Below are positions 16,769 through 33,259 of a stretch of 64,000 bases of DNA, one piece after another (positions within the stretch are counted from its first letter, which is position 1; each line of letters opens with the position of its first letter). Position numbers and translations under genes: made by a program. Source of the DNA: an uncultured Gemmatimonadaceae bacterium (GTDB lineage Bacteria; Gemmatimonadota; Gemmatimonadetes; Gemmatimonadales; Gemmatimonadaceae); NCBI GenBank assembly GCA_963829055.1, contig CAWHHI010000017.1, forward strand, positions 196,959 to 260,958, read 5' to 3'. Under the pieces are notes generated by a model. The model saw only the letters and a program-made list of their open reading frames with translations, had not been told where the DNA came from and did not search any database.

Positions 16769-16785
16769 GATGCCCGGATGGAACG

Positions 16786-16818
16786 CGCGCCGATGACGCG
16801 CCGATGATCGATCGATGA
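16786..16818. promoter_or_regulatory. Three direct repeats with 11-bp period (putative SARP operator)
   Basis: cgcgcCGATGA cgcgcCGATGA tcgatCGATGA between the divergent BTAD and RCC1 genes. Confidence 0.55.
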
Positions 16819-16896
16819 CCCCCGGAGGCGACCGTCGCGTGGTCCGTTCGGTCCGTCGTGGACCGCGAACCACTCACTCGACACTCTGGGGGACGC

Positions 16897-17774
16897 ATGG
16901 TGCGCCCGACGATGATCGCGCTCTGGTCAGTATTGCTCCTTGCCGTTCGCGAGGGGAACGATCCAGGGACGAACCGCGCTGGGGAGGCCTCCGGACGGCA
17001 GGCGCCTCCCCTGCCGACGGTTTCGCTGGGGACGGAACACGGGTGCGGGCTCGCCGCCGGCGGCCAGGCGTACTGCTGGGGCTCGAACCGGCTCGGCCAG
17101 CTCGGCGATGATCGCGTCACGTCCGTGGCCGCGACCGTGGCGAGCGCCGTCCCCGTGGCGACGTCGCAGTCGTTCACGACGATCAGCGCCGGCGCGAACC
17201 ACACGTGCGCGATCACCGCGGTGGGCGAGGCGTACTGCTGGGGACTGAACCTCACCGGCGAGCTCGCCCAGCGCGCTGGTCGCGAACGAATGCGACGGAT
17301 TTCCGTGCAGTCGGCGTCCGGTGCGAGTGGAGACGAGCGCGCGATTCGATACGGTCTCCGCGGGTTTTGGCCATACGTGCGCGCTGAGCCTGGGTCGCGC
17401 GCTCTGCTGGGGGCGAAACGATCGTGGACAACTGGGAACGGCGCACGCGGACGACAGGTGCGACGGCATTGCCTGCAACGTGACACCGAGCGCGGGTGTC
17501 TACCGCGGACGGGCTCGCGTCCATGACGTTCACGTCGATCTCCGCGGGCGGCGATCACACCTGCGGGATTGCCGGCGGCGTCGCGTACTGCTGGGGATCG
17601 AACCAGTACGGCCAGCTCGGCCTGCCGATGTCGGTGCAGCGCAGCAGTCGTCCGATCGCCGTCCCATCAGTCGAGCGGCTGATCTCGATCCAGGCGAAGG
17701 GGATTCGAACATGCGGGCGGACAACTACCGGCAGGGAGACGTGCTGGGGAGCTGTCGGTGCGACAATGCCGTAG
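16897..17774 (+). CDS. RCC1-repeat protein (frameshifts near 17280 and 17500)
   Basis: Repeated ISAG..HTC...G.AYCWG.N..GQLG units spread over three frames. Confidence 0.82.
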
Positions 17775-17848
17775 CCGTTAGGCAGCGGAGTCCGGTGGCC
17801 GAGCCGGCCGCCGCTTTGCGGCGGCCGCGGCAGCACGTACAATGCAGT

Positions 17849-18820
17849 ATGACCAAGCATCAGGTCCCGCAGGTGGATCGAACCGCCCGCGCGGCCGCGA
17901 GCACGCATCTCATCATCCCGACGGGAACGCAGGTCGTCTCACGCGTCGAGGTGCGTGCCGCGTCCGGCGCGGTGGTGTGCCCGCTGGGCGCCGCGGGTGT
18001 CGTGGTGCGCGCCCCCGACGACGCGACGCACGCGTACCGCGTTAGGCTGCCGGACGGCACCGAGGTCTCGCTCCGGCGGCAGGAGATCTCCATCCGCAAG
18101 CACGTGCAGCAGGAAGATCTCGACGCCGTCGGCGAGGTGCTCGCCGATCACGATCTCTACGAGTTCGTCATCTACCGCTGCGTCCTCGGCTCGCACGCAT
18201 ACGGGCTCGCGCACGAGCAGTCCGATACCGACCGGCGTGGCATCTACCTCCCGCCGGCAGAGCTCCACTGGTCATTGTACGGCGTGCCCGAGCAGCTCGA
18301 AGACAAGAAGACGGACGAGGTGTACTGGGAGATCCGGAAATTCGTGTCGCTGGCGCTCAAGTCCAATCCGAACATCCTCGAGTGCCTGTACACGCCGATC
18401 GTCGAGATCGCGACGCCGCTCGCGCAGGAGCTGCTCGAGATGCGCACGATGTTCCTCTCGAAGCTGATCTATCAGACGTACAACGGCTACGTGCTCAGCC
18501 AGTTCAAGCGGCTCGAGCAGGATCTGCGCACGACCGGGACGCTCAAGTGGAAGCACGCGATGCACCTCATCCGCCTGCTGATCGCGGGCGTGACGGCGTT
18601 GCGCGAAGGCTACGTGCCGGTGCGCGTCGACGCCCATCGCGATCGACTACTGGCGATCAAGCGCGGCGAGGTCGAGTGGCCCGAGGTGGACGCATGGCGG
18701 CTCGCGCTGCACAAGGAGTTCGATCACGCGCTCGAGACCACTGCGCTCCCCGACAGGCCTGACTACGAGCGTGCGAATGCATTTCTCATCAGAGCTCGTC
18801 GCGCGATGGTCAATCCATGA
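17849..18820 (+). CDS. RlaP / Nuc-transf family Pol-beta nucleotidyltransferase with N-terminal extension
   Basis: GSHAYGL...SDTDRRG, LALKSNPNILE, WKHAMHLIRLL, LPDRPD; TACAAT 5 nt before the ATG. Confidence 0.85.
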   Translation: MTKHQVPQVDRTARAAASTHLIIPTGTQVVSRVEVRAASGAVVCPLGAAGVVVRAPDDATHAYRVRLPDGTEVSLRRQEISIRKHVQQEDLDAVGEVLADHDLYEFVIYRCVLGSHAYGLAHEQSDTDRRGIYLPPAELHWSLYGVPEQLEDKKTDEVYWEIRKFVSLALKSNPNILECLYTPIVEIATPLAQELLEMRTMFLSKLIYQTYNGYVLSQFKRLEQDLRTTGTLKWKHAMHLIRLLIAGVTALREGYVPVRVDAHRDRLLAIKRGEVEWPEVDAWRLALHKEFDHALETTALPDRPDYERANAFLIRARRAMVNP

Positions 18821-19626
18821 ACGCTCGGATGGCGGACGGCGCACAGCGGATGGCGAACGATTCTCGGCTTCTCGCGGAGGTCGCGCAGCATCCGCATCGG
18901 CTGCTGTTCGCGACGGTGAGCGGTGCGCACCTGTACGGATTTCCGTCTCCGGATTCCGACTTCGACCTGCGCGGAACACACGTGACGCCGGTGGAGCTAC
19001 TCACGGGTCTCGACCGCGTGAATGAAACCGTCAAGCTGTCGCACGATCGCGACGGGGCGGAGATCGATCTCGTTACGCACGAGGTGCGGAAGTTCTTCTC
19101 GCTCCTGTTGCGCGACAACGGCTACGTGCTCGAGCAGTTGTACTCGCCACTCATCGTGCACACGAGCCCTGCGCACGACGAGTTGAAGGACGTCGCACGC
19201 GGATGCATCACGCGCCGCTGCGTACGCCACTACCTCGGCTTCGCGGTCAATCAATGGGGGCTGTTCGAGAAAGAGGAGCCGAGGCGGGTGAAGCCGCTGC
19301 TGTACGTCGTGCGCGTGCTGCTGTCGGGGATACACATGATGCGCACAGGCACGGTGAACGCGAATCTCCAGGAGTGCAACGATGCGCTCGGTGTGCATCG
19401 ACTGGACTGGGTCGACGAACTGATCGCGCGGAAGATGGCTGGCCCGGAGCGCGAGACGATCGGCGCGGAGGACTTCGCGTTCCACCATCGTGAGTATCTC
19501 CGGCTGCGTGAGTGGCTGGCACGTGAGGCGGAACAGAGCACGCTACCTGATCATGCGACCGCGGAGCCGGCGTTGCGGGATTTGTTACACCGTATCCGCT
19601 TCGGGGAAACCGAGCAGGCTGCGTGA
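18817..19626 (+). CDS. Second RlaP / Nuc-transf family nucleotidyltransferase
   Basis: SGAHLYGFPSPDSDFDLRG, NGYVLEQLYSPL, KPLLYVVRVLLSGIH; ATGA overlap with the upstream gene. Confidence 0.87.
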   Translation: MNARMADGAQRMANDSRLLAEVAQHPHRLLFATVSGAHLYGFPSPDSDFDLRGTHVTPVELLTGLDRVNETVKLSHDRDGAEIDLVTHEVRKFFSLLLRDNGYVLEQLYSPLIVHTSPAHDELKDVARGCITRRCVRHYLGFAVNQWGLFEKEEPRRVKPLLYVVRVLLSGIHMMRTGTVNANLQECNDALGVHRLDWVDELIARKMAGPERETIGAEDFAFHHREYLRLREWLAREAEQSTLPDHATAEPALRDLLHRIRFGETEQAA

Positions 19627-19776: not shown

Positions 19777-20601
19777 ATGCCCACGCTGACCGTCGCCGGC
19801 GGAGCCGGACCGATTCACGTTGTCGATCTTCACGAAGAGAGCCCGACGCCTTCGGGCGAGTTGCCGATCGTGTTCGTCCACGGCATGGTGGGCCACACCG
19901 GCTTCTGGAAAGCAGCGCTGGCGGCCTGTGCTGACCGGCGCCGCGCCATAGCGATCGACCTGCGAGGCCACGGGAATTCGAAGCCCCCGAGTGACGGCGA
20001 CTACTCCGTGGAAGGGTGTGCGACGGACGTCCTCGCCGTCTTCGACGCGCTCGGCCTCGAGTCGGTGGTGCTCGTCGGTCACAGCTACGGCGCGCACGTG
20101 GTGATCGAAGCAGCCGCGCGGCAGCCATCCCGCGTTAGGCGTCTGATCCTCGTGGACCCGCCCGGCGACTTCACCACGTGGTCCGCTCAGATGCGCGAAG
20201 AGCAGATCGTTCCCTACCTCGCCTCCATGGACGGGGACAATTGGCGCGCCGTGGTCGAATCCGACTTCGACGACGCGCTCGTGGGCGGCACAAGCGCGAC
20301 GGCCGCTGCGATACACGCGAGACTGGCCACGATGCCACACGACGCGATGCGGTCGATGGCGCGCGGCATGATGAACTTCGGCGCGAAGGCGGCGCTGGAG
20401 CGCTACCTGGCCCATCCGGGCAGCTCGGTGCACGCGATCCTCGCGCCGCCTAACGCCTGGCCGTTCAGCCTCCACCTCCTCGTGCCGGCGATCACGACAA
20501 CGGTCGTCCCCGACGTCGGCCACTGGATCATGCTCGACGCGCCCGAGCGATTCATACAGGCGTTGGAGGAGGCTATTCAGGTCGGAGGAAGGAGGCCGTA
20601 G
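19777..20601 (+). CDS. Alpha/beta fold hydrolase
   Basis: VFVHG, DLRGHG, VGHSYG nucleophile, GHW. Confidence 0.88.
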   Translation: MPTLTVAGGAGPIHVVDLHEESPTPSGELPIVFVHGMVGHTGFWKAALAACADRRRAIAIDLRGHGNSKPPSDGDYSVEGCATDVLAVFDALGLESVVLVGHSYGAHVVIEAAARQPSRVRRLILVDPPGDFTTWSAQMREEQIVPYLASMDGDNWRAVVESDFDDALVGGTSATAAAIHARLATMPHDAMRSMARGMMNFGAKAALERYLAHPGSSVHAILAPPNAWPFSLHLLVPAITTTVVPDVGHWIMLDAPERFIQALEEAIQVGGRRP

Positions 20602-21125
20602 GAAGGAGGCGGTGTCATCCCGAGCGAAGCGAGGGACCTTCCGTGAAGTACTCGTGGCCGGCTGGCGTTCTGCGACTCGGAACGGCGGAACGCAGAGCGC
20701 TCTGAACGCGCAGACCTCGCAGAAAACTGCACCAGCAACGCGGGTTCTTTTCTGCGTCTTCTGGGCGGTCAGAGCGCTCTGCGTTGCGTAGTGCGGGCCA
20801 GCCTCGAGGCACTACCGGCTACGATGACCCTCGAGAAAGTCCCTCGCTGGCGCTCGGGATGACAACGAACAGCAGACAGGATTGCAGGATTGGGAGGATT
20901 CCGGGCGGGCGGATCGCGAGCGTCCCTCGAGACGTCTCTCCAATCCTGCCAATCCTGGCAATCCTGTCTCCGTTGTTGTTTGCTTTTTCTTCTTGCCGCA
21001 GCGGCTCGGGGTGGGTCAGGGGACCTTCTGTGATGTCATGGTAGCCGGTCCGGCCGCGAGTACTTCACGAAGGTCCCTCGCTGCCGCTCGGGATGACAGC
21101 CTCCTTCCTATGGCCTCCGTCCTCC
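20584..21125. repeat. Composite nested palindromic element with about 75-bp terminal inverted repeats (MITE/BIME-like)
   Basis: 20584-20661 is an imperfect reverse complement of 21050-21125; internal AACGCAGAG..CTCTGCGTT and CAGGATT..AATCCTG hairpins. Confidence 0.85.
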
Positions 21126-24100
21126 TTCCTCCGGTGGCGCCATATACACGAGCGACGGATCAAACGCCCACAACGCCACGCCCACCGTCGGCAGCATCGA
21201 CTCGAACGTCATGTCGACCGCGCGATTCTTTCCCATCCCGCTGTGACTCTCGCGCAGATCCGTCACGAGATCACTCAACGAGTGGCCGCGCGCGAACGAC
21301 TCGGCGATCATTCGCGTGATGCGCGCATGCTGGTCCGGCTCACCGAGACCCACGCCTACCACCGCCACCGCCGTTCCCTGACGGAACAGATCGGCCGCGA
21401 AGCCGTTGCGCAGCAGCATCTGCAGCATCGCCTGCGTACGGCCGTGGCCGCGCGACGGGTCGAGCACCACGATCGGGCGATCCGGCCAGCGCGTCTGGCC
21501 CAGCGCCCGTGTCACGCCGCTTGGCGTCAGTGCGTCGCCGCGCACAGACGCGTTGTCACTCGAACCGGCAGCGCGCGCGTCCAGCACGATTCCGCCGAGC
21601 GACGCCGACTCGCGCAGCGGGGCGCGCACGTGAATGACCTCGGGGTGAAAGCTCCCGCACAGCTCGCGCAGCTCCGCCACCGCTACGCCCTCGCGCACCA
21701 TCGTGTCGAACCCTGCCTCCTCGTAGGCGCGCGCGACGCGGTCCGCGGCTGCTTCATCCTCGCCGCCAATCGAGCGCGCGAGCTCCGGCGCCGGCGCGAT
21801 CACGAGCGCGCGAAGCCGCTGGTCGCCGCGGTGCAACCGCCGCAGCCGATCGAACAGGAGGGCCGACGTCGGACCATCCGCGATCCCGCTTGGCGTTAGG
21901 CCCACGGACTTCTGGAATGCGGACACCGCCCCGCGGGTCTGCGGCCCCTCGATCCCGTCGGCAAAGATGCGCGTGCCGCCGATCGTCGAGAGCGCCCGCT
22001 GCACCCACGTCACGTGCGTACGGCGCGCGTCGGTCACGCGGACGCTCCGATAGAGCGTGCCGACACGCGGATCCAACGCCAGGAACCCGGGCTCCTCACC
22101 ACGATCCGGAAAGCATTCCAAAGGCAGCGTATCGAGCAGCGGCGAGTCGACCTCGAGGCGCACGTCCACCGGTGGCGCTGACGTATTGCCGCCCAGCGTC
22201 GTCTCCCATAACTCGCGCGTGCCCAGCAACGTGCCGAGGTCGCGGATCGCTCCGAACCACTCATCGGCGAGCAAGCGCGACACCTGGTACGGCACCGCCT
22301 GCGACCTCGCCGCTTCGAGATCGCTGCGCAGGTGATCGAGCGCCGGGTTGTGCGCGGTGCTCGTATCGAATGCGACCGTGCCGTGTTCGTCGTCGCCAGC
22401 CGGAACCTCGCAGCGCACGTTCGTGCCGTCCGCCATGAGCCGTACCGAGATCGGCGGCCGTTCGTCGCGAACGGTCAGCTCGACCGTCGACGGGCCACGC
22501 TGTTCACGCAGACGTTCGGCGGCATGCTGCTGACCTAACGCGTCGTACCGGGAGATCGCCTCGGCGAGGAAGTGCTGGCGATCGTCAGCGGTGGCGGCGA
22601 ACTGCGCGCGAAGATCATCGCACTGCGCCGACCAGAAGCTCGGCAGCTCGCCACGCGGAGACAGAAGGGGCGCCGCCGCCTCGGCCATCATGCGGGATTC
22701 CTCGCGCTTCCCTTCGCGAGCCAGATGTGCTGCCTCGCGAGACGCGACGATTCCGGCGAGCGTGCGGTACTCGCCGGGATTCGCGATGAGCGCACTCACC
22801 GCCGCGCGTGATTGTCGCTGCGTCTCCGGCACGCCCATCTCACACTCGAGCGAGTGCGCCAACGCGACAAGGGGTGCCGACGCACTCATCAGCGCGGCCG
22901 CCGACACGCTCGCCAGCCACTGCAGCGCGTCCGCTTCGAGGCCGAGCGCGAACGCGACGCGCGCCCGATCGAGCCGGGACCACGGTGACAGCGACCTGGC
23001 TGGCCCCAATACGGCATCGAACGTCACGCCGATGCGTTCCGCGACACTGCGGCCGACCTCGCCGATAGACGAGAGCGGAGCGAAGTCCGGAATCGCGCGC
23101 GAGATGCACAGCCGCGCCGCACCCGGCGGGGAGATACGCTCGACCGCGTTCGTCAGCAGCGTCGCGTAGCCCGCGGCATCCCTGGCCGCGGTGCCAGCCG
23201 AAGCAGCGTTAGGCTCGCTGCCGCTTCGGTCTTCCGATAGCGCCGCGATCGCGACGCCCACGTCGACGCGGGGAGTCCGCGCGGCGCCGGGCGGACAGGA
23301 CGTTCGCAGCCGGTTCGCGGCATCGACCGGTCGGCCGCGGGCGTCGTCGAGCCGCACCGCGGCCACTCGCAGCGCCGTCCAGGCATCGCCGCGCGGAGGA
23401 AGCGTTATGCGCTCAGCCTCGTTCAGGTGCTGTTCGGCCATCTTGAGATCGCCAACGCGATAGATCAACAGCAACACTTTGCGGTGAAGGTCGGCCGCGC
23501 TCTGCTCGACGCGCTTGATGCGTTGCGCCCAGATCTGCCGCGACGTTTCCAGCTCGTCGAGCGCTGCGCCGTGGCGTCCCATCGTCGCCAGCACGGCTCC
23601 CCGCGCGCTCCGCGCCGTGCCCTCGGCCACGATCGCCAGCATCTCGAATCCGGGGCGCGCCAGCTGCAGTGTGCCCAGCTGAGTCGCCGTCGCGAGCGCC
23701 GCGTCCACCATTCCGAGCGCCTCGGCCACTTCCCCGCGCGCCAGCATCGCGCGCGCTTCCAGCACCTCGATCTCGGCACGTGCGCCGAGCCATCCAGCGC
23801 GTTCCTCGGCGGGCGCAGTGGCGGGTAGCGCTGCCAGCGCCGCCTGACATTCGCCGCGCGCATTCCTCACGGCGCCAAGTGCCTGACGCGGCTCGTCGCT
23901 GCCGAGCCAGGCTTCCGCGAGCCGCGCCGTCGCGTAACAGCGTTCCATGGAGCCGCGCGGCATGCGCCCACGCACGAGCAGCAGCTGTTCGGCAGCCAGG
24001 TCGTACCGGTCGTGCAGCATGCAATGCGCGGCCAGTAACTGCCGCAATTCCAGCAGCTGTCGCGGCGCAACATCCGTGTCCACCTCGGCGAGCTTCACCG

Positions 24101-26720
24101 CTTCGGTGAGGTGGTCGATCGCCGCTGGCTCCTCGCGCGTCGCGAAGACGCCCCCGAGCGCGATCGCCAGCTGCAGGCGGTCCGCCGGTGACGTCATCGA
24201 GGGACGGATGCGCTCGAGTCGCCGGAGCGCGTCGTCGGCCCTGCCGTATCGCGCGTCGATCTGCGCGCGCAGTACGTCGAGCGTGCCGCGATTCACGTGC
24301 GCGCCCTCACCGCGGCGGACGAGTGCCTCGAGATCCTCGAGCGCGCGCTCGCCCTCCGCCCACCAGTCGACGTCACCGCTGCCGCCACTCGACGCGCCGA
24401 GCTGGATCGCGGCGCGCGCCTTCGCGATCAGCGCGTCGCACAGCAGCGCCGGCGCAATGATCGGCGTGCCATCGTCCCGGAGAATTGGACGGCGATCGTC
24501 GTCGAGGTACTCGGGCTGCGTGGGCTCGGTAGCCACCTCGAACGCGAGGCGCACATCGGTCTTCGTCATGGCGCGACGGAGCGAGCGGCGCCACGCACGC
24601 TCCGCTTCCGGACCGCCGAGCTGGAAGCGGTGGAACAGCATCGCGCGCGTGGCGCGTACCCAGCGCTCGTTGTCGACTCGTTCGACGGCCCGTGCGACAC
24701 TCGCGTAGTACGTCGCCGCGCGCTGTTGCAGGCGGCGGAACACCGGCTGGCGCTGCAGCTCGCGACGCATCGGGCGCACCGCGTCTTCGTGGAAGACGAC
24801 GGTATCGCGGTCGGCGTCCGCGCGTACGAACGACAGGGTGCTCGCGTAGCCCTCGAGGCGAGACCAGAGGTCATCCACTTCCAGCGCGACGGCGCCCGCA
24901 CTCGCCTCGCCAGGCGCGACGTAGTAGGGATGCAATCCAGTGGCGTCGAGACGTGGATCGTCTCGCTGCGACGTGCCACCTAACGCCGCGTGGAGCTCCG
25001 GCAGCAGCACATCGCGCAGGAAGCTCTTCGTCAGCTGACGCGGCACCACGCCGTAGCGCAGGAGCCAGCATAACGCCTGGTCCGATGCTTCGATCCGGCG
25101 CAGTACGCGATTGACGAGATACTCGAGCTCCGGATTCGGCGATGCCCGCACCTGCTCGGCCGTCATCTCGCCCCCGATCTGCCATTCGTCGGCATACAGG
25201 GAGAGCGCGAACGGCAGCCCGCGCGAGCACTCCGCCATGGCGCGCACCGCGTCGCCGTCGGGGAGGCCACGAATGTCCACGAGATAGCGCACGCTCTCGT
25301 CGGGCTCGAAGCGCTGGATCCGGACGGACCGCGTGACATCGCCGAACTCGGTGCCGAATCCCTTCAGCTTCGTATCGTCCCGCAGATCGAATCGGCCGGC
25401 GAGGACCAACCGCAGATTCGGGTACGCGTCGTGGACGCTCGACAGACACGCGATGACCGACATCAGGTTCGTGGTGCGCCGGCGGATGACATCCTCGAGC
25501 GTGTCGAGCACGACGACGACTGCACCGCCGACGGTATCCCGCAGCGTATCCGCGAAGTCTTCGGTGACCTGTCGCGCCAGGCGCTGCTCGCCGGTGACGT
25601 CGAGAATCTCTCCCGTGTGCTGCGCGCGTCCCTCGACGACCAGGTCTCGCGCGATGGACACGTACTCATCGTACCGCTCGATGAACCCGGAGAGCGGACG
25701 GCCGGCGATCTGCGCGTTGAGCTGCTCGGCGAGGCGGACCAACAGCAGCCATGGCGCTTCGGGGAGTACCGTCGGATCCGTGAAGTCGAAGTCGATGCGC
25801 GCGTACGGCACGCGATTCGGTACGCACTTCCGCGCGGCAAGCCACTGCAGGAAGATCGTCTTCCCCATCCCGCCCTGCGCGGTGAGGTCGATGATCCACT
25901 CGCGGTCCACGGTGTTCACCGACGCGGCCGACGTCGTGTTGATCCCTTGAATGCGGGCCCATTCGTCGCGCATGAACTGCCGTTCGAGCGCATGCGCGCT
26001 CTTCGCCAGATCGCCCGCGAACGCACAGCGCGCCTCGTAGTACTGCTGCAACGAGTCGTGCATCTCGACCAGCCGCGTGATGGCCAGGCGACGGTCCGCC
26101 GCCTGGCCGCGCTGATCACGATGGCGCAACAGCAGCGCGCGCTGCCCGCCGATGATCTGCAGCACGCGGTAGCAGCGCGCCACGTTGAACTCGGCGTCCG
26201 CCTCGCGATACAGCTCGTTCAGCCGCTCGGCGGCTGCCGCCGGATCAGCCAGGGCGAGCTGGTAGAGGTGCTCGATGCGCCAACCGACGCGAACCGCCTT
26301 CCCCGGCGGCGCGAGGTAGTCTACGATCGCGCGACTCAGGGCGACGCCGTCGAGGACGTCCGAATACGCAGGTGCTTTGTCGTTAGGCGCGAACCATCGC
26401 TCCAACCGGGCCGCGCGCGCATCGGCGCGCATGCGGTACACGGGCTCGCTGCCACCAACGCGCTCGATATCGTTGTGCGCAGTGAGCCACGCGATGTCGG
26501 CGTCCGCGTCGGGCGTCGCGTCGCCAGCCGACGGCAGCTGGGCCAGCAGGACCGTGCGGGCCATCCCCTCATCGAAGATCACCGGAATCGCCGCGCGTCG
26601 CAGCAGCATGTGGCGCCGCTCCGGCACGAGCGTCTCGGCCACCTCGCGCAGGCTGCCGAGATGATCGGCTTTCGCGAGGAGCGCGCGGAGCGCGGTGAGC
26701 GATTCCTGGCTGGTCGCCAC
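21108..26720 (-). CDS. 1870-aa STAND-like NTPase with TPR-like helical repeats and a degenerate CHAT domain carrying a peptidoglycan-binding insert
   Basis: Walker A AQGGMGKT, Walker B VVVLDTLE, LVLAGR, GLPFAL; PG_binding_1-like WVQRAL...ADGIEGPQTRGAVSAFQKSVGLTPSGIADG; CHAT-like VRLEVD..L..LPLE and PEVIHV. Confidence 0.78.
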   Translation of the reverse strand: MATSQESLTALRALLAKADHLGSLREVAETLVPERRHMLLRRAAIPVIFDEGMARTVLLAQLPSAGDATPDADADIAWLTAHNDIERVGGSEPVYRMRADARAARLERWFAPNDKAPAYSDVLDGVALSRAIVDYLAPPGKAVRVGWRIEHLYQLALADPAAAAERLNELYREADAEFNVARCYRVLQIIGGQRALLLRHRDQRGQAADRRLAITRLVEMHDSLQQYYEARCAFAGDLAKSAHALERQFMRDEWARIQGINTTSAASVNTVDREWIIDLTAQGGMGKTIFLQWLAARKCVPNRVPYARIDFDFTDPTVLPEAPWLLLVRLAEQLNAQIAGRPLSGFIERYDEYVSIARDLVVEGRAQHTGEILDVTGEQRLARQVTEDFADTLRDTVGGAVVVVLDTLEDVIRRRTTNLMSVIACLSSVHDAYPNLRLVLAGRFDLRDDTKLKGFGTEFGDVTRSVRIQRFEPDESVRYLVDIRGLPDGDAVRAMAECSRGLPFALSLYADEWQIGGEMTAEQVRASPNPELEYLVNRVLRRIEASDQALCWLLRYGVVPRQLTKSFLRDVLLPELHAALGGTSQRDDPRLDATGLHPYYVAPGEASAGAVALEVDDLWSRLEGYASTLSFVRADADRDTVVFHEDAVRPMRRELQRQPVFRRLQQRAATYYASVARAVERVDNERWVRATRAMLFHRFQLGGPEAERAWRRSLRRAMTKTDVRLAFEVATEPTQPEYLDDDRRPILRDDGTPIIAPALLCDALIAKARAAIQLGASSGGSGDVDWWAEGERALEDLEALVRRGEGAHVNRGTLDVLRAQIDARYGRADDALRRLERIRPSMTSPADRLQLAIALGGVFATREEPAAIDHLTEAVKLAEVDTDVAPRQLLELRQLLAAHCMLHDRYDLAAEQLLLVRGRMPRGSMERCYATARLAEAWLGSDEPRQALGAVRNARGECQAALAALPATAPAEERAGWLGARAEIEVLEARAMLARGEVAEALGMVDAALATATQLGTLQLARPGFEMLAIVAEGTARSARGAVLATMGRHGAALDELETSRQIWAQRIKRVEQSAADLHRKVLLLIYRVGDLKMAEQHLNEAERITLPPRGDAWTALRVAAVRLDDARGRPVDAANRLRTSCPPGAARTPRVDVGVAIAALSEDRSGSEPNAASAGTAARDAAGYATLLTNAVERISPPGAARLCISRAIPDFAPLSSIGEVGRSVAERIGVTFDAVLGPARSLSPWSRLDRARVAFALGLEADALQWLASVSAAALMSASAPLVALAHSLECEMGVPETQRQSRAAVSALIANPGEYRTLAGIVASREAAHLAREGKREESRMMAEAAAPLLSPRGELPSFWSAQCDDLRAQFAATADDRQHFLAEAISRYDALGQQHAAERLREQRGPSTVELTVRDERPPISVRLMADGTNVRCEVPAGDDEHGTVAFDTSTAHNPALDHLRSDLEAARSQAVPYQVSRLLADEWFGAIRDLGTLLGTRELWETTLGGNTSAPPVDVRLEVDSPLLDTLPLECFPDRGEEPGFLALDPRVGTLYRSVRVTDARRTHVTWVQRALSTIGGTRIFADGIEGPQTRGAVSAFQKSVGLTPSGIADGPTSALLFDRLRRLHRGDQRLRALVIAPAPELARSIGGEDEAAADRVARAYEEAGFDTMVREGVAVAELRELCGSFHPEVIHVRAPLRESASLGGIVLDARAAGSSDNASVRGDALTPSGVTRALGQTRWPDRPIVVLDPSRGHGRTQAMLQMLLRNGFAADLFRQGTAVAVVGVGLGEPDQHARITRMIAESFARGHSLSDLVTDLRESHSGMGKNRAVDMTFESMLPTVGVALWAFDPSLVYMAPPEEGGRRP

Positions 26721-26723
26721 GAC

Positions 26724-28901
26724 CTATTTCACCTGCCCCATGAACGTGACCATGGCGTCCAGCTCGTCGCGACCCCAGCGCGCATCGGGCGACGCGTTGC
26801 GCAGCTTCTGGCTCTTCCACTCGATGAGCGGCTCGGCCAGCGCGCGGTCGAGTCCGCGGTCCACCGTGAACTCGCGGGCCAGGAGCTCCCAGTCGGCCGG
26901 CACGAACCACTGCAGCTCGCAGTCGGTGCCTAACGCCGCAAGGTCCGACAGGCCGAGCGCCTTGAGCTGCGACGCGCCGGCAGTGAGAATGAGCCGGACG
27001 TTCTTGATGTCGCCGTTCGCGATCGGGTCGATCAGCTCGCGACGCAGATCGCCGCCGGGCCGCAGCTCTTCCGGCACGATGCCCACGCCCGACAGGTCGG
27101 CGATGTGATCGAGTACGATGACGACGAGCCGATTGGCCGCGAGCTTTCGGAGGCATTGGCGAAAAAGCTCGCCGGCCTGCTTGAGCGTATCCTGATGCGC
27201 GACGCCGAGCTTGAAGTCGATGCCGTCGTCGCGCTCGGGACCGGGCGTGAGTGGCACGACCTTCCCGCGCAACAGGTGATAGAGCGCGGCGTTGAACGGG
27301 TCGAACTGCTGGTAGAGGTTCGGACGCAGCACGCCCGCGGGCTCGTTCTCCGTACCGCGAATGAGGCGGAAGACGTCGATCGCGTTGAAGCTCCGGCGCT
27401 GATCCTTGAAGCTGATGTTCACGACGAGATGACCGCGCAGCAGGCACCCCTCGAGGCACCGCCACACGAGCCACGTCTTCCCCACCTGTGACTCACCGAG
27501 CACCATGAGCAGCTTGCTGGTTTGCGGTACCGTCGCGCGGGCTTCGGCGCCCTGACGGAGTCGGCGGCGCTCGTCGCGACGACCCACGAACCCCTCGACG
27601 ATCTTGAGCGATGGGTCCGACACGATCTGGCGTTTGATGGCGAGCGGCGAATCTTCCTCCATGGGCAGTACGCGCTCGGGAAGTGTGCGCAGCACGACGG
27701 TGGGCAGCGCCCAGTCGCGCTCGTCGTCGGGCGCGGCCGTGAGCATTCGCCGTCGCCCTTCGACGACTGCCGAGTCGATGGTCATGCCGCGCGTGAGCGC
27801 CGCGTACAACCCGGCGGCGAAGCGCGCCGCTGCGTCACCACGCACGTCGCCCTGCATGCCGATGACCCCCGCGACCTCGGCGTCGACGAGCGCGTCGGCG
27901 ACTGCCCAGGTGCCTTCGAGGTCGGAGAGATTCGCCGTGCGACAGGCGTTGATGATCGCGAGCCGAGGCGGCGCGGGCGCGAGCCAGCCGTAGAGCTCTT
28001 TCGTCGTCAGCAGCTCGTTCTCGAGCACCGTCGGACGCGCGTCGAACAGCTTGAGCGCGGCTTTCTGCGTTGCGTCACCAGGCACGCCGTGCCCGAGGAA
28101 GTGCAGGACGTGCGGCTGGAACTCGGTGAGCCGCTGCTCGAGTGCTTCCTTCGGGCCGACGTCGCGGTCCTTGATGCGCTTCGGGAGCCGGCACTCGAAG
28201 AACTCGACATCGATCTTGTGCCACAGGAGATCGATCGTGTCGCCGCCCACACCCGGCTCGCGCCGGAGCTGACTCACCGACTCGAGGAGCGCCCACAGCT
28301 CCTCACGCCAGTCGATCGCCTTGTCGTCCTCGCTGCATCCGATCACGACGAGCACCCGGAACGGCCACTGCAGCGGCGCCGCTTCGGCCAGCGGCTGCTG
28401 GCTGGCCTGCCACCTAACGAGCGGCCACCACGCTTGCTGCGCGAGCGAGTTCTTGCCCGTGCGGATCAGTTCCCATGGTAGCAGGCGCAGTTCCGGAGCC
28501 CGGACGTCGAGCAGCATTCGCAGTGCGGGACGCTTCTCCTGCTCCGACTGCACGCGACCGGCCCACGCCGTGTCGCGCTCCTGCTTCCAGAGCGGCGCCA
28601 CGCCTGGGCGGTTGAGGACATTGAACAACAACGTCCCAACGCGCTCGAGGAGATCGGTGCCCGCCGTTGGACCGAGCAGGTAGTCGCGGGCAAGAAGCGC
28701 CTGGAGCGGCTCGTTCGTGGCTGGATGCAGCGGCGCGTTGGCGACTGCGAGGTCGGACGGAATGATGTCCGACGCCGTCGGCGCGGAGCCGTCCGTCAAC
28801 TGTCGAACGACTTCCGCGTCATCGCCGACGAAGAGCGAGAGCGGGTATCCATCGACACCACCCTCGCCCTTCGTCCCGATGCGGAACGCAATGCTTCTCA
28901 T
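26724..28901 (-). CDS. CHAT protease fused to a P-loop (STAND/AAA_16-like) NTPase
   Basis: LLPWEL, HVLHFLGHG, IINAC (His-Cys dyad), VIGMQ, DWALP; then FVGRRDE, GESQVGKT, VIVLD; ATG 28901 follows GGTGAGG. Confidence 0.85.
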   Translation of the reverse strand: MRSIAFRIGTKGEGGVDGYPLSLFVGDDAEVVRQLTDGSAPTASDIIPSDLAVANAPLHPATNEPLQALLARDYLLGPTAGTDLLERVGTLLFNVLNRPGVAPLWKQERDTAWAGRVQSEQEKRPALRMLLDVRAPELRLLPWELIRTGKNSLAQQAWWPLVRWQASQQPLAEAAPLQWPFRVLVVIGCSEDDKAIDWREELWALLESVSQLRREPGVGGDTIDLLWHKIDVEFFECRLPKRIKDRDVGPKEALEQRLTEFQPHVLHFLGHGVPGDATQKAALKLFDARPTVLENELLTTKELYGWLAPAPPRLAIINACRTANLSDLEGTWAVADALVDAEVAGVIGMQGDVRGDAAARFAAGLYAALTRGMTIDSAVVEGRRRMLTAAPDDERDWALPTVVLRTLPERVLPMEEDSPLAIKRQIVSDPSLKIVEGFVGRRDERRRLRQGAEARATVPQTSKLLMVLGESQVGKTWLVWRCLEGCLLRGHLVVNISFKDQRRSFNAIDVFRLIRGTENEPAGVLRPNLYQQFDPFNAALYHLLRGKVVPLTPGPERDDGIDFKLGVAHQDTLKQAGELFRQCLRKLAANRLVVIVLDHIADLSGVGIVPEELRPGGDLRRELIDPIANGDIKNVRLILTAGASQLKALGLSDLAALGTDCELQWFVPADWELLAREFTVDRGLDRALAEPLIEWKSQKLRNASPDARWGRDELDAMVTFMGQVK

Positions 28902-28959
28902 CCCCTCACCATTCTCTTCTGCTTCGAACGTCCGACCTGCGTCCTGCGTGTGCCGCCTG

Positions 28960-30543
28960 TCATGCAACTCCGTGCGCAACTCCGGCGGCAGCCGGCGAGC
29001 CCATCGCCACGACCGCCGCGTCGTTCGACAGCCACTCCTTCATCTTCCGGCGCGCGTCGGGGCTCGCGAAATACGTCGTGTGCACCACGCCGGCCGACGC
29101 GGGAATCTCCAGCCGGGATACCGCCTCGATCGGGAACGACGGGCTGCCGTTAGGCGCGAACACGCCCTCGGTCGGGACGACGAGATCGTTCGCCGCCTTC
29201 TCGAAGATCCTGTCCATCAGCGCGTCCTTGATGAGCGTCGTCAGCGGCGCCGTGGTCTCCTGCGCCGACGCGTCGAAGTTCGCCGTGATGGCGTAGTACG
29301 TCGCGCCGGCCTTCTGCCCACCGGCCAGTCCTTTCAGGTACTTGCCGTCGGGGCACATGGACGCGAGGCCGTCGAGCGACGTGAGCCCACCGTGGCCGAT
29401 GACTTTCACCACGACGATGAGCGAGTCGAGCAGCTCCGAGACGATGCCGGTCGGAATGAGATTCGATATCGTCGTCAGGCGGTCGATCATGTCCATCATG
29501 TGCTCCGGCTGCGCGAGAATCGTCCCCGCGTTCGCCGCGCCCACGAACACCACTCGGCCGACGTTGAGACGGTCGGGCGTCAGGCCATACAGCGCGCCTC
29601 GCTCCGCGATCTCCCGCGCGACGAGCCCACCGCGACTGTGGCAGATGATGTCGACGTCGAGCTTCACGCCCTGTGGAATGAGCGCCGAGAGCTCCTTCGC
29701 GTTGCGCGCCGGATCATGCGCGAGCGAGAAGTGGTTGAACGCGAACACGCGCCCGCCGTACGCCGCGTTCAGGTCCTCGACGTCCTTGCGGTCGAGACCC
29801 GAGAATGCGCCGTGCGCCGTACTGAACGTGCCGTGCACGAGGAGAAGGGCACGCCCGGATGCGAGGCGCTTCCAGTCATCCGCCGTGAGGCCCGGCGCGC
29901 CAGGCGTCGCATAGTTGTCCGGCGTCATGAGACGCAGCCCGTACGGGTGCTTCTTCGCTTCCCACTTGGCCGCGAACGTGTCGACCGCCTTCCCGATCAG
30001 GATATCGGTCACGGGATAGACGAGCACTTTGAGCAGCTTCTTTCCGACCATGCCCACGAGCCCGCGTGTCGTGGCCTGCTCGCCCGTCGGAGTCGGCGCG
30101 ACGGCGCGCGGGATACGGAAGCGCTTCACGTCGCCCGTACCGCGAGTCGTGGGCGTCGCGATCTTGTTGTCATCGGTGAGCGGCAGGTGCCAGCGCATAA
30201 TGCCGCCCTCACCAATCTCGAGCACGATGTGGTCCCACTCCGGACCAGTGTCCGGCACCTCGAGCATGAGCGCGTCGTCACCGCCGGGCGCACGAAGATC
30301 CGCCGCTGGTCCAGCCGTGGGCGTCTCGACGGCATCGATCTCGACGCTTATCGCTTCCGACATGTCGTTCGCGGCCAGCGCATCATCGAGCGCCGCCGTC
30401 TCCTGGCCCGGCGTGCCAGCGCGCATTCCCGGCTGACGCGCTTCGTGCGTGCGGCCCTGGCCGACGAGCCCGGGCGCAATGAGCCGGAAGCCGAGCCCGA
30501 GGTCGATCGGGGCGGCGCTACCATCAAGTGGAAAATCTCCCAT
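28960..30543 (-). CDS. Lipase-like alpha/beta hydrolase with an extra N-terminal domain
   Basis: LLVHGTFS, CHSRGG nucleophile elbow, NDLVVP, VHTTYF; GGAGG RBS; no signal peptide. Confidence 0.82.
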   Translation of the reverse strand: MGDFPLDGSAAPIDLGLGFRLIAPGLVGQGRTHEARQPGMRAGTPGQETAALDDALAANDMSEAISVEIDAVETPTAGPAADLRAPGGDDALMLEVPDTGPEWDHIVLEIGEGGIMRWHLPLTDDNKIATPTTRGTGDVKRFRIPRAVAPTPTGEQATTRGLVGMVGKKLLKVLVYPVTDILIGKAVDTFAAKWEAKKHPYGLRLMTPDNYATPGAPGLTADDWKRLASGRALLLVHGTFSTAHGAFSGLDRKDVEDLNAAYGGRVFAFNHFSLAHDPARNAKELSALIPQGVKLDVDIICHSRGGLVAREIAERGALYGLTPDRLNVGRVVFVGAANAGTILAQPEHMMDMIDRLTTISNLIPTGIVSELLDSLIVVVKVIGHGGLTSLDGLASMCPDGKYLKGLAGGQKAGATYYAITANFDASAQETTAPLTTLIKDALMDRIFEKAANDLVVPTEGVFAPNGSPSFPIEAVSRLEIPASAGVVHTTYFASPDARRKMKEWLSNDAAVVAMGSPAAAGVAHGVA

Positions 30544-30627
30544 CGGTGCCTCCAGCGCGGCGGTTGCCGCTTGCGTCGTTAGGTCCTGTCAGGTCCTGCC
30601 GGGTGCTGCATCGTCAGGTCACGCGGG

Positions 30628-32859
30628 TCATGCGCGGGTCATCATCAGATTCGGATGGCCGTAGAATACGTACGCGAGGTATGTGGAATGCCGAGCCGTA
30701 ACCGGATCGGCCGCATAACGCGCGCGGATACCAGTCAACACCTCGGCGACCGGCTTGGCGTCGCCACCCGCCGGGAGCGTCGCGTTGTAGAACTCCTCGG
30801 CGATGCCGTGCGCGATGCCGTCCTCCACCGACCAGAGCGGTGCGAGCACGCCGCTGAAGCCCGCCCGCAGACAATCGCCGGCGAATCCCGCGTAGTCGCC
30901 GAGCTGCGTGATCGCCGCGCCGACCTTGCACGCGTTGAGGAACAGGAACGGCTGCGAGGCCCGACCGAGGTCCGAGTCGAGGAACAGCGTCGACGAGAAC
31001 GTCTTGCCGTCGCTGAGGTAGAGAACAGCAGCGGGCGGGTTCGTTCCCGTGACGTCACCATGACACGCGAAGTGCACGATCTCGGCGCCACACGTCCCGC
31101 CGCCCGCGACGGGAATCTGTCCCGCCATGAGTTGCGTCAGCTCGAGGTTGCTCGCCGTGAGCGCGAGCGTGTCGTCCTTGTACGTCGTCTCGAGGAACGC
31201 CTTCTCGTCCTGCGCGAACTTGAGGTCCTTGAGGCGACCGAACTTACCGTACTCACCGATCACCACGGCAATGTGGTCGACGTGATGCGAGAGCGTCGGA
31301 GCCGGTGCCACGTTAGGTGAGAGGATCCAGCGCGCCATCGCGAACTGCGCCGCGAGGAACGGCGGGCGGGTCTTGTCGGGGACAGGTTCCGGAAATCGGG
31401 CGAGCTCCCACGGCACACTCGACTCGCCGCTCATGAGCAGCAATGTCGGCACGCGGCCGGTCTTGTCGTGCACGACTTTCCACGCATCGCGTAGCGCCTG
31501 CCACACGTTCGCCGGAATCTTGTCGGCGACGTGTACGCCCTGGCCGCGCAGCGTGCCGTCGAGCGACGGCTGCCCTTCGTTCAACGTGACTTCATTGATG
31601 AAGCCACGCGCGAAAGACGCGGCGTCGGCGCCGAGCGTGATGGCAACCGGCTCGGACGGGAACGTGAGGTCGGGCGAGGGATCGAACGTCAGGAGGTAGC
31701 GGCCGGAATCCGTGTCATCGCGCGGCGCGATGCGCATGACGATGTCGGGCCGATTCGCGACGGCCGTGGCGTCCACGACGACGGGTGCGGCGACAGCGAC
31801 CGGATCAGCGGCGACGGGCGTCGCGCGTGAGCCGGTCCTCCGCTGCACGGCGACGCGTCTCGTTGCCACGCCGCACGGGACGCCCTTGTACGAGAAGTGC
31901 ACCATGAGCAGCGACACGGACGGATCGTCTTCCTCAGCCGGAAGACGCAGCGCCGTCAGCTTCACCGTGCAGCGCGCGCTGTACGGATCGGCGATTTCGA
32001 CGTCGAGCGTGCGACGCCAGCCATCCGGTGCAGAGAATCCGCTCGCCGCTACCTGCACGTCGAGCGTGAGCGTCTTCGTTCCCGCCTCGTAGTCGATGGC
32101 CATTGCGCCGCCTTCGACACCCTCCGCCGGCTTCGCGACGAGCCCGATGGTGACGTCCATCGAGTCTTCTTCGCGAACAGCGGCTGGCGCGTCCACGAGC
32201 GCGTGCGCCGTTAGGCGCTCGATGCGAGACGGCGCAGCGGCGGTGGTTGCCTGCGGCGGCTCCGCTCCGCTCGGTTCCGGCAGCGGCGGTGGAGGTGCAG
32301 CCCCGCGTGATGGAGCCGTGCCCGGCGTGTGCGGTCTCGTCGCCCGCGCCGGCGCTGGCGGCGGGGCATACGATGGCGGCGGTTCCGTCACGGCGACCGG
32401 CGCCGGACGTTCGGCGGCAATCGGCGCCGAGGGGATGCCCGCGTCTCTCCCGCCAATCGGCTGCGACGCGCCTCCGGGCGCAGGCCCGCGATGCGCTGAA
32501 CCACCACGCTGGCCGACCGGCGCAGCACGTCCCGGCTCACCGACCACGGCGTACACCTGATAGCCGTCGAGCACGACACCGTTGAACGTGCTCAGGTCCG
32601 CTCGTTTGAGCTTGCCGAGCTGCATCGTCGCTGCCGCCTGTCCGCCGTACAGCGAGTCCGCGATCCGATCGGTTTTCGGCAGCTTTTTCAGCCGCTCCGC
32701 GAGCGCTTCGACCGTGGTCGTGTGGTACGCTCGTGCGACACCGGTGCGCGTGATGATGACCACCGGCGTACCCGGCGGGTGGTCAGCGATCTGTGTTGCG
32801 GCCACGGCGTTTCGCGTCGCTGCATCAAGCACGAGGGGCGTGCGAAGCAGCAACGTCAT
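30628..32859 (-). CDS. CHAT-domain (caspase-like) protease with Pro-rich linker and central beta domain
   Basis: VPWEL, IVHFACHG, FLNAC (His-Cys dyad), PLWSV.D, YVFYGHP. Confidence 0.87.
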   Translation of the reverse strand: MTLLLRTPLVLDAATRNAVAATQIADHPPGTPVVIITRTGVARAYHTTTVEALAERLKKLPKTDRIADSLYGGQAAATMQLGKLKRADLSTFNGVVLDGYQVYAVVGEPGRAAPVGQRGGSAHRGPAPGGASQPIGGRDAGIPSAPIAAERPAPVAVTEPPPSYAPPPAPARATRPHTPGTAPSRGAAPPPPLPEPSGAEPPQATTAAAPSRIERLTAHALVDAPAAVREEDSMDVTIGLVAKPAEGVEGGAMAIDYEAGTKTLTLDVQVAASGFSAPDGWRRTLDVEIADPYSARCTVKLTALRLPAEEDDPSVSLLMVHFSYKGVPCGVATRRVAVQRRTGSRATPVAADPVAVAAPVVVDATAVANRPDIVMRIAPRDDTDSGRYLLTFDPSPDLTFPSEPVAITLGADAASFARGFINEVTLNEGQPSLDGTLRGQGVHVADKIPANVWQALRDAWKVVHDKTGRVPTLLLMSGESSVPWELARFPEPVPDKTRPPFLAAQFAMARWILSPNVAPAPTLSHHVDHIAVVIGEYGKFGRLKDLKFAQDEKAFLETTYKDDTLALTASNLELTQLMAGQIPVAGGGTCGAEIVHFACHGDVTGTNPPAAVLYLSDGKTFSSTLFLDSDLGRASQPFLFLNACKVGAAITQLGDYAGFAGDCLRAGFSGVLAPLWSVEDGIAHGIAEEFYNATLPAGGDAKPVAEVLTGIRARYAADPVTARHSTYLAYVFYGHPNLMMTRA

Positions 32860-33003
32860 CGTCGAACCTTCGATTGTCCCGCCACCTCGATCCTCCTGAA
32901 GCAACGTCGTGCAGATAGTCGTTCCAATTTGGCGCGGGCGGAAGTCGTATGCAGCAGCATGTGAGCACTCGTCAACGACTCGTCAGGCAGGCTCATCCAC
33001 AGC

Positions 33004-33180
33004 TGTCATTCCGAGCGGAGCGCCGAAGGCGCGCGGGTGCCCTCTGGGCGCATGAGGAATCGCGACTGTGCTGGCAGAAGGATCCCTCTATCGGGACGAT
33101 CGGGATTCCTCGACTCCGGCCTGCGGCCTGCGCTCGGAATGACATAGCTCCTCGACTCGCTTCGCTCGCTCGGAATGACA
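33004..33180. repeat. REP-like element with a duplicated right arm
   Basis: tgtcattccgagcg...gaggaatc...gattcctcgact...cgctcggaatgaca, followed by a second ctcgact...gctcggaatgaca. Confidence 0.85.
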
Positions 33181-33259
33181 GCCGCCCCTATGGGACTAAC
33201 CGGCTCGGAACGTAAGTTCTGGGCCCGCGAGCCGAGCCTGCCACCTCGCCAGCTTCGAG

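Follow-up and report, generated by a model that had tools for sequence, protein, structure and literature searches.

A CHAT-STAND and hydrolase gene cluster of a soil Gemmatimonadaceae bacterium as a candidate protease-gated conflict cassette built from two modules

We analysed four adjacent genes, here called A to D, in a 64,000-nt window (the whole stretch of DNA under analysis) of an uncultured Gemmatimonadaceae soil bacterium (GCA_963829055.1, contig CAWHHI010000017.1, positions 196,959-260,958 of the forward strand; the source genome is 86% complete). With a probability of roughly 0.55 we favour the reading that they form an accessory, protease-gated conflict cassette made from two modules, A-B and C-D, in which a trigger would assemble D with C, activate the CHAT protease of C and, through A and B, release a lipase that kills or arrests the cell; its most likely role would be abortive defence. 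All four minus-strand open reading frames (ORFs) are present and intact (Table 1) and are separated by 84, 58 and 3 bp (A-B, B-C and C-D), which agrees with the co-oriented, closely spaced arrangement given in a preliminary description of this DNA. The catalytic motifs quoted there for A, B and C are likewise present, and are conserved in 13/13, 119-120/120 and 106/106 homologues respectively. All four genes are under purifying selection, with dN/dS ratios of 0.18, 0.22, 0.19 and 0.25 for A, B, C and D against a metagenomic copy of ~77% identity, and the GC content of the cluster matches that of the genome.

From the genes, domains, residues, neighbourhoods and patchy distribution described below we infer a trigger, cleavages and toxicity arranged as follows. 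The helical repeats of D would bind the trigger; D and its paralogue C would co-assemble, the N-terminus of D completing the truncated STAND module of C; clustering would activate the CHAT protease of C, with the dead CHAT of D serving as scaffold or brake; the CHAT protease A would cut the zymogen B after conserved arginines in its N-terminal pro-region, and the freed lipase or esterase would damage the cell. In this lineage A-B would replace an HExxH gene, E, that follows C-D elsewhere.

Both A and C belong to the CHAT peptidases, as they match PF12770 above the cut-off and carry the His-Cys dyad. In A (E 2e-13) the dyad H600/C644 is kept in 13/13 homologues, and in C (E 6e-22, together with AAA_16 at E 1e-7) H271/C320 is invariant in 106/106 aligned members, in keeping with the earlier assignment of A as a CHAT protease and of C as a second CHAT fused to a P-loop NTPase. 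Asp680 in the LWxVxD motif of A is also invariant (13/13), and from a motif match, not an alignment, we take it to be the probable equivalent of separase D2151; C is without that Asp, the equivalent position in its family being Gly in 83/106. Separase D2151 is described as recognising the P1 arginine (PMC9729208), and the invariant D680 of A, set beside the Gly found in most of the C family, would favour A rather than C as the protease of B. Residues 1-130 of A scored 19.2 bits against a profile of homologues, compared with at most 3.1 for 200 shuffles. TCAD7 was found in 6/6 scanned A homologues (5 above the cut-off), and Pfam TCAD7 gave no match in the source genome and none in the controls; judged by this custom homologue profile, the N-terminus of A is only TCAD7-like. 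An R[GS] motif in the linker of A (9/10 homologues) lies in low-complexity sequence and has no control, and was not counted as evidence.

B had been described as a lipase-type hydrolase with an extra N-terminal domain, and this is confirmed by a match to DUF7379 (E 3e-50), a catalytic triad kept among the 120 best B homologues aligned (S303 in 120/120, D453 in 120/120, H488 in 119/120) and a structure model (predicted local distance difference test, pLDDT, 62) that matches hydrolases and lipases; its profile also matches the putative lipase 7x2p (E 6e-7). In the same alignment the N-terminal arginines are kept at R41 (117/120), R84 (119/120), R134 (119/120) and R160 (120/120), and the residue that follows is Gly in 119/120 for R134 and Ser, Gly or Ala in 118/120 for R160. 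These arginines sit in variable N-terminal segments, the residues preceding R160 vary freely, and R41 and R160 fall in segments of the model with pLDDT <50. R[GS] occurs at the R160-equivalent position in 7/8 distant DUF7379 proteins, the eighth being not parsed. R141 and R204 are also kept, but bulkier residues follow them, and not every conserved Arg is a candidate site. The four conserved sites are predicted to be likely cleavage sites, and that A cuts B after conserved arginines, the firmest part of the model, appears quite probable. An amphipathic membrane helix exposed after R160 was considered and set aside as weak (hydrophobic moment 0.34-0.55, not among the top windows; residues 168-176 form a strand in the model).

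The pairing of A with B recurs well outside this genome. Queries with B detected 21 GTDB loci, 13 close and 8 distant, the close ones belonging to Thiobacillus, Gemmatimonadales, a Desulfuromonadales-type lineage, Acidobacteriota, Rhodothermales and Dehalococcoidales. A homologue of A lies directly upstream of B in 12/13 close loci from several phyla, and the thirteenth contig begins inside B. Amongst the distant loci 7/8 were scanned, of which 6 encode DUF7379-CHAT fusions and 1 is cut by the contig end; on the Ruegeria pomeroyi megaplasmid (L073:9704-16508) a DUF7379-CHAT fusion is found with a SIR2-AAA_21 ATPase and an HNH-like gene, beside IS5; the strain can be cultured, which makes it convenient for testing. 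The hydrolase is thus linked to CHAT in two ways, through adjacent genes and through fusion in one protein. No confirmed relatives of B or C were found in IMG/VR, and carriage by phages or prophages is not backed. In an Acidobacteriota metagenome-assembled genome (MAG), a CHAT-SIR2 and nSTAND1-HEAT pair is convergent with an A-B module (L005:12977-16650). The source genome itself has 12 CHAT matches and is rich in such caspase/CHAT modules. A second locus there, near a contig end (L040:5607-17354, contig C3), encodes a caspase-DUF7379 fusion of 1168 aa followed by a caspase-TIR-WD40 protein, and contigs C11 and C20 (L041 and L042) carry a caspase-DUF4384 gene convergent with a CHAT-linked nSTAND1-WD40 gene, and a trio of WD40, CHAT and nSTAND1.

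Evans et al. (2025 preprint, PMC12642450) report that LcCaspase cuts Lysobacter LcHydrolase at two sites between Arg and Gly, that the fragments kill E. coli, and that sensors, STAND proteins among them, are coupled to such caspase/hydrolase modules. A-B resembles this pair in placing a clan-CD protease beside a lipase-like hydrolase with conserved Arg-Gly sites: B has an adjacent caspase-like gene in 12/13 close loci and two such sites (R134-G135 and R160-S/G/A). LcHydrolase, however, has 296 aa and is cut between its HG motif and the nucleophile, whereas B has 527 aa and four sites in an N-terminal pro-region; neither the size nor the in-core cut is shared by B, as judged by eye from Table S1 of that preprint and not by alignment. 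B would therefore work like LcHydrolase but is not placed in its family. The protease-activated, lipase-like output that the preliminary description had proposed gains support, as a prediction, from the A-B pairing, the Arg sites of B and this experimental precedent. The same sites might suggest instead that B is a cleavable regulator or bait and not a killer, with A as a broad, PCaspase-like effector protease, since four Arg sites are what a bait might have and SAVED-CHAT is described as activating a promiscuous PCaspase (10.1101/2023.06.23.546230). The triad of B is invariant, which argues that its catalysis is selected, and the DUF7379-CHAT fusions keep both domains; we hold this alternative to be highly improbable.

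In the second module, the start of C is most likely the ATG at 28901, which gives 725 aa, the same length as its homologues; the C family is large, and most of its best 150 cluster representatives have 620-740 aa. The Walker A Lys is kept in 103/106 members and the Walker B Asp in 105/106, followed by His or Gln in 89/106. Beyond Walker B the chain continues for a median of 122 aa (n=106), short of the +145 position at which the winged-helix domain (WHD) of D begins, so that C does not hold a complete module of nucleotide-binding domain, HD1 and WHD in one chain. Profile comparison identifies its NTPase as a paralogue of that of D (hhalign 97.9%, E 6e-13).

D has the fold of a STAND NTPase together with the Walker A/B, sensor-1 Arg and GxP motifs, the winged helix and C-terminal repeats. 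Its model for residues 1-800 (pLDDT 78) gave VIA Z scores of 20.1 with MalT (389 residues aligned, root-mean-square deviation, rmsd, 7.2), 20.0 with NRC2 (320 aligned, rmsd 4.6), 17.6 with the STAND-TPR structure 6mfv and 14.2 with Apaf-1, and the top Foldseek matches were CED-4, NRC3 and Apaf-1. The motifs GGxGK, DTxE and GR and residue P503 are invariant in 9/9 D proteins. The C-terminus of D is a homologue of the CHAT of C (hhalign 95.6%, E 1e-8), in which the His-Cys dyad is lost in 8/8 D proteins that reach the region, of 9 aligned; it is predicted to be catalytically dead. The preliminary description of D as a STAND protein with TPR-like repeats and a degenerate CHAT is thus upheld for the fold and the CHAT, but the repeats are only weakly TPR (TPR_12, E 0.004). 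It overlooked a PG_binding_1 domain at residues 1568-1621 (Pfam E 1e-9), which is also present in the D protein of genome G094 (E 1e-7), weakly in that of G661, and not in that of Sinorhizobium.

Residues 30-235 of D weakly resemble the WHD-HD2 region that follows its own NTPase (hhalign E 0.0035, score 26.6 against <=14.7 in 14 controls), which suggested that the N-terminus of D may complete the truncated STAND of C. A predicted complex of the D N-terminus with residues 425-725 of C is weakly consistent with this, with a score of 0.58 (best control 0.00). The mark was reached by 116/157 solved and 2/215 mismatched pairs, but of these only 18 solved pairs and both mismatches scored <=0.60, and the two parts of a split domain may also pass because they resemble each other. 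The runs agree in at least 95% of contacts, with a partner pLDDT of at least 78.

C-D is the rarer of the two pairs. Full-length orthologues of C were detected in one genome (G094) among 400 others searched in the phylum, one of 401 Acidobacteriota genomes (G661, over two contigs) and one of 72,556 plasmids (Sinorhizobium terangae). In all three the order is C, then D, then E, a 460-490 aa protein with an HExGH (HExxH) motif and a mutual identity of 32-36%. In G094 a CHAT gene precedes C, and the sole relative of B is distant and lies elsewhere. In Sinorhizobium a C25 peptidase gene and a weakly matched hydrolase gene converge on C-D-E, with WYL and PD-(D/E)XK genes nearby. E has no Pfam match; its nearest named Atlas clusters are M48/U49 at 0.77, a lead only, and several unnamed clusters stand at 0.98. 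Relatives of E were found in 1/251 genomes of the phylum of the Dehalococcoidales MAG, 2/301 Pseudomonadota and 6/401 Acidobacteriota; they precede CHAT genes in 4/5 further Acidobacteriota loci and in 0/2 Pseudomonadota loci, and these 7 further loci gave no match to D or B. We regard E as a candidate new effector family. Distant E relatives also occur, without CHAT, among successive unannotated genes whose N-termini are very acidic (L091, L092 and L093).

The cluster comprises two modules that also occur elsewhere unaccompanied by one another, and the earlier expectation of a conserved, co-occurring four-gene unit is not supported: A-B occurs without C-D, C-D occurs without B, and all four genes together were found in a single Gemmatimonadaceae-like lineage only. 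All metagenome loci found with C (10/10) keep gene order and spacing at 72-100% identity; in 4 of them the whole set of four genes is seen (complete in 2), the flanking genes, where they can be seen, are the same, and the ten represent one lineage and not ten independent cases. D was detected in 0/60 relatives, including 0/6 congeners, and B in 0/5. In 3/5 congeners the site is empty, with contiguous flanks and all four genes absent together; the flanks are ~1.2 kb apart in G815 and G812 against 13.6 kb here, and ~0.5 kb in G811, where the span compared is wider. Such contiguous empty sites identify the cluster as an accessory cassette whose genes come and go together.

How the modules are joined is the weakest step. 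As A-B takes the place of E after C-D, C would probably license or act on A, with odds that we put at even or slightly below, because A-B usually exists alone; a single cascade from C to A to B is somewhat doubtful. The main rival, which we consider unlikely, holds that two independent conflict modules lie side by side, A-B being self-sufficient through the TCAD7-like or middle domain of A, and C-D acting in trans or on host proteins after the loss of E. In 12 loci A-B stands by itself, and in 10 of the genomes concerned a search did not detect D; C-D is accompanied by E in 3/3 distant loci; the 12 CHAT matches and other caspase loci of the genome are possible partners; and the specificity of C may differ, since it has no Asp at the D680 position of A (Gly in 83/106). 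This rival accounts poorly for the order and spacing kept in all 10 metagenome loci (72-100% identity), for the joint absence of A to D at the empty sites and for the purifying selection on C and D in an 86% complete genome where E was not found.

Several observations weigh against a joint, defensive cassette. A search with D residues 1-800 found no D in 10/10 genomes with A-B (MAGs, single query), which means that A-B can generally do without C-D. Neither C nor D was detected in any of the 21 B loci, although in 3 close ones the contig stops no more than about 0.6 kb from where B ends, and B is not beside C-D in 3/3 distant loci. The homology of D 30-235 to WHD-HD2 has a probability of only 9%, and the Arg sites of B precede the hydrolase core, unlike those of LcHydrolase. 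With the PADLOC 2.0 system library of hidden Markov models (dated 2023), A, B and D gave no match and C only weak ones, the best being SAVED-CHAT; none of 9 D-family proteins matched. No defence island was seen in the window, where the flanks carry housekeeping genes. The cassette model does not account for a peptidoglycan-binding domain in a cytoplasmic D (no signal peptide is evident in A to D, judged by eye). This domain, the housekeeping neighbourhood, the stable vertical inheritance in one lineage and a weak similarity of C to HetF (E 3e-10, far below the cut-off) would all suit a role in proteolytic signalling or envelope stress, as for a HetF-like CHAT, with D sensing fragments of the cell wall and B remodelling lipids but not killing the cell. 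That role is improbable, given the sporadic distribution across phyla and plasmids, the swapping of partners, and relatives that lie beside SIR2-AAA_21/HNH, CHAT-SIR2/nSTAND1, WYL and PD-(D/E)XK genes.

The favoured cassette model has precedents in part. Sensor-coupled clan-CD proteases that free a hydrolase zymogen, and a cascade from CHAT to caspase, are already known. The best PDB match of C is 8tl0 (E 1e-22), which we take to be SAVED-CHAT. Steens et al. (10.1101/2023.06.23.546230) describe SAVED-CHAT as activated by oligomerisation and as cutting a second clan-CD protease, PCaspase; our cluster would share the CHAT-to-clan-CD-protease logic but has no SAVED domain, cyclase or CRISPR, and the similarity is limited to the CHAT domain. 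Kaur et al. (2020, PMC7159879) described obligate caspase-hydrolase neighbours, predicted such pairs, proposed inactive caspase copies as regulators and named TCAD7 as ternary-complex associated. These features recall the MoxR-vWA ternary systems, although C keeps the Walker A Lys, unlike iSTAND, and the 49 window ORFs scanned gave no Pfam match to MoxR, vWA or VMAP/iSTAND. No CATRA-type Pfam match (Burroughs and Aravind 2020) was found on A to D. In the main text of Evans et al. the word CHAT does not occur, and the parts covered mention neither a paired STAND nor a further protease. No PADLOC system was matched, but the logic is less new than the preliminary description suggested, the pairs having been predicted in 2020 and cell killing reported in the 2025 preprint. 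The literature search turned up nothing that describes DUF7379, TCAD7, the C-D(-E) core or the cluster, and subscription papers and large supplements, mostly outside its scope, may list such neighbourhoods; the paired-STAND core C-D (with E), present in at least three phyla, is apparently undescribed.

C-D presumably also parallels Avs and bacterial NLR sensors, paired NLRs and the caspase-8/cFLIP pair, in its STAND fold with C-terminal helical repeats and its active and dead protease paralogues. It differs from Avs and NLR sensors in that D matches no PADLOC model, and in that the active protease is carried by a truncated STAND encoded separately, with the dead copy at the C-terminus of the sensor. 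A bolder version of the cassette model, which we regard as tentative and rather unlikely in full, is an inflammasome-like cascade of three steps, in which C, within a split STAND, would act as initiator on the Arg-specific executioner A, which would strip the four-site pro-region from B; DUF7379 would then be a second lipase-zymogen family that evolved independently, and the outputs of C-D (A-B or an HExxH peptidase) would be swappable. If the cascade is true, one operon would combine bacterial counterparts of paired NLRs, of control by caspase and pseudo-caspase and of initiator/executioner layering. For DUF7379, a large unannotated family (1010 matches), the analysis proposes a function that can be tested, with the cut sites predicted to the residue.

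Table 1. Positions of the cluster genes and associated features (window coordinates, except for gene E)
Feature	Position	Strand	Description or basis
Gene A	30628..32859	-	743 aa; TCAD7-like N-terminus (diverged), then a Pro-rich linker, a beta-rich middle domain and an active CHAT protease (H600/C644, LWxVxD Asp680)
Gene B	28960..30543	-	527 aa; beta-rich N-terminal pro-region and DUF7379 alpha/beta-hydrolase (S303-D453-H488)
Predicted cleavage sites in B (R41, R84, R134-G135, R160-small)	30064..30423	-	Arg conservation in homologues
Gene C	26724..28901	-	725 aa; active CHAT (H271/C320) fused to STAND-type NTPase ending before the winged-helix domain
Gene D	21108..26720	-	1870 aa; WHD/helical-like segment at the N-terminus, then a full STAND NTPase, helical repeats and a CHAT predicted to be catalytically dead
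D residues 30-235, candidate missing half of the STAND module of C	26016..26633	-	hhalign and complex prediction
Peptidoglycan-binding domain inserted in the pseudo-CHAT of D	21858..22019	-	PG_binding_1, E 1.4e-9
REP-like repeat cluster	20580..21130	.	genome-wide family, not specific; repeat counts
REP-like repeat cluster	32990..33190	.	genome-wide family, not specific; repeat counts
Gene E loci	G094:C8; G661:C272 (L070:6349-7731); NZ_CP121661.1 (L072:21641-23029)		

The clusters of repetitive extragenic palindromic (REP)-like repeats noted earlier are indeed present at both ends, but the repeat of which they are copies has about 193 and 224 loci in the genome, and its core motif occurs 1020 times; because the family is genome-wide they are not specific to the cluster, and they were rejected as boundaries of the system. 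The remaining window ORFs scanned are housekeeping or transport genes (Pfam, 49 window ORFs). Regarding expression, two soil RNA runs contained 0.06 of the cluster words, in short contigs only. At positions 17321-19626 (+) tandem nucleotidyltransferases of the RlaP family (PF10127) are absent at the syntenic site in G811, G812 and G815, and this pair is a second accessory insertion. At 14209-16873 (-) a BTAD-type regulator is apparently split over two overlapping frames (ORFs of 775 aa and 354 aa), possibly by a frameshift.

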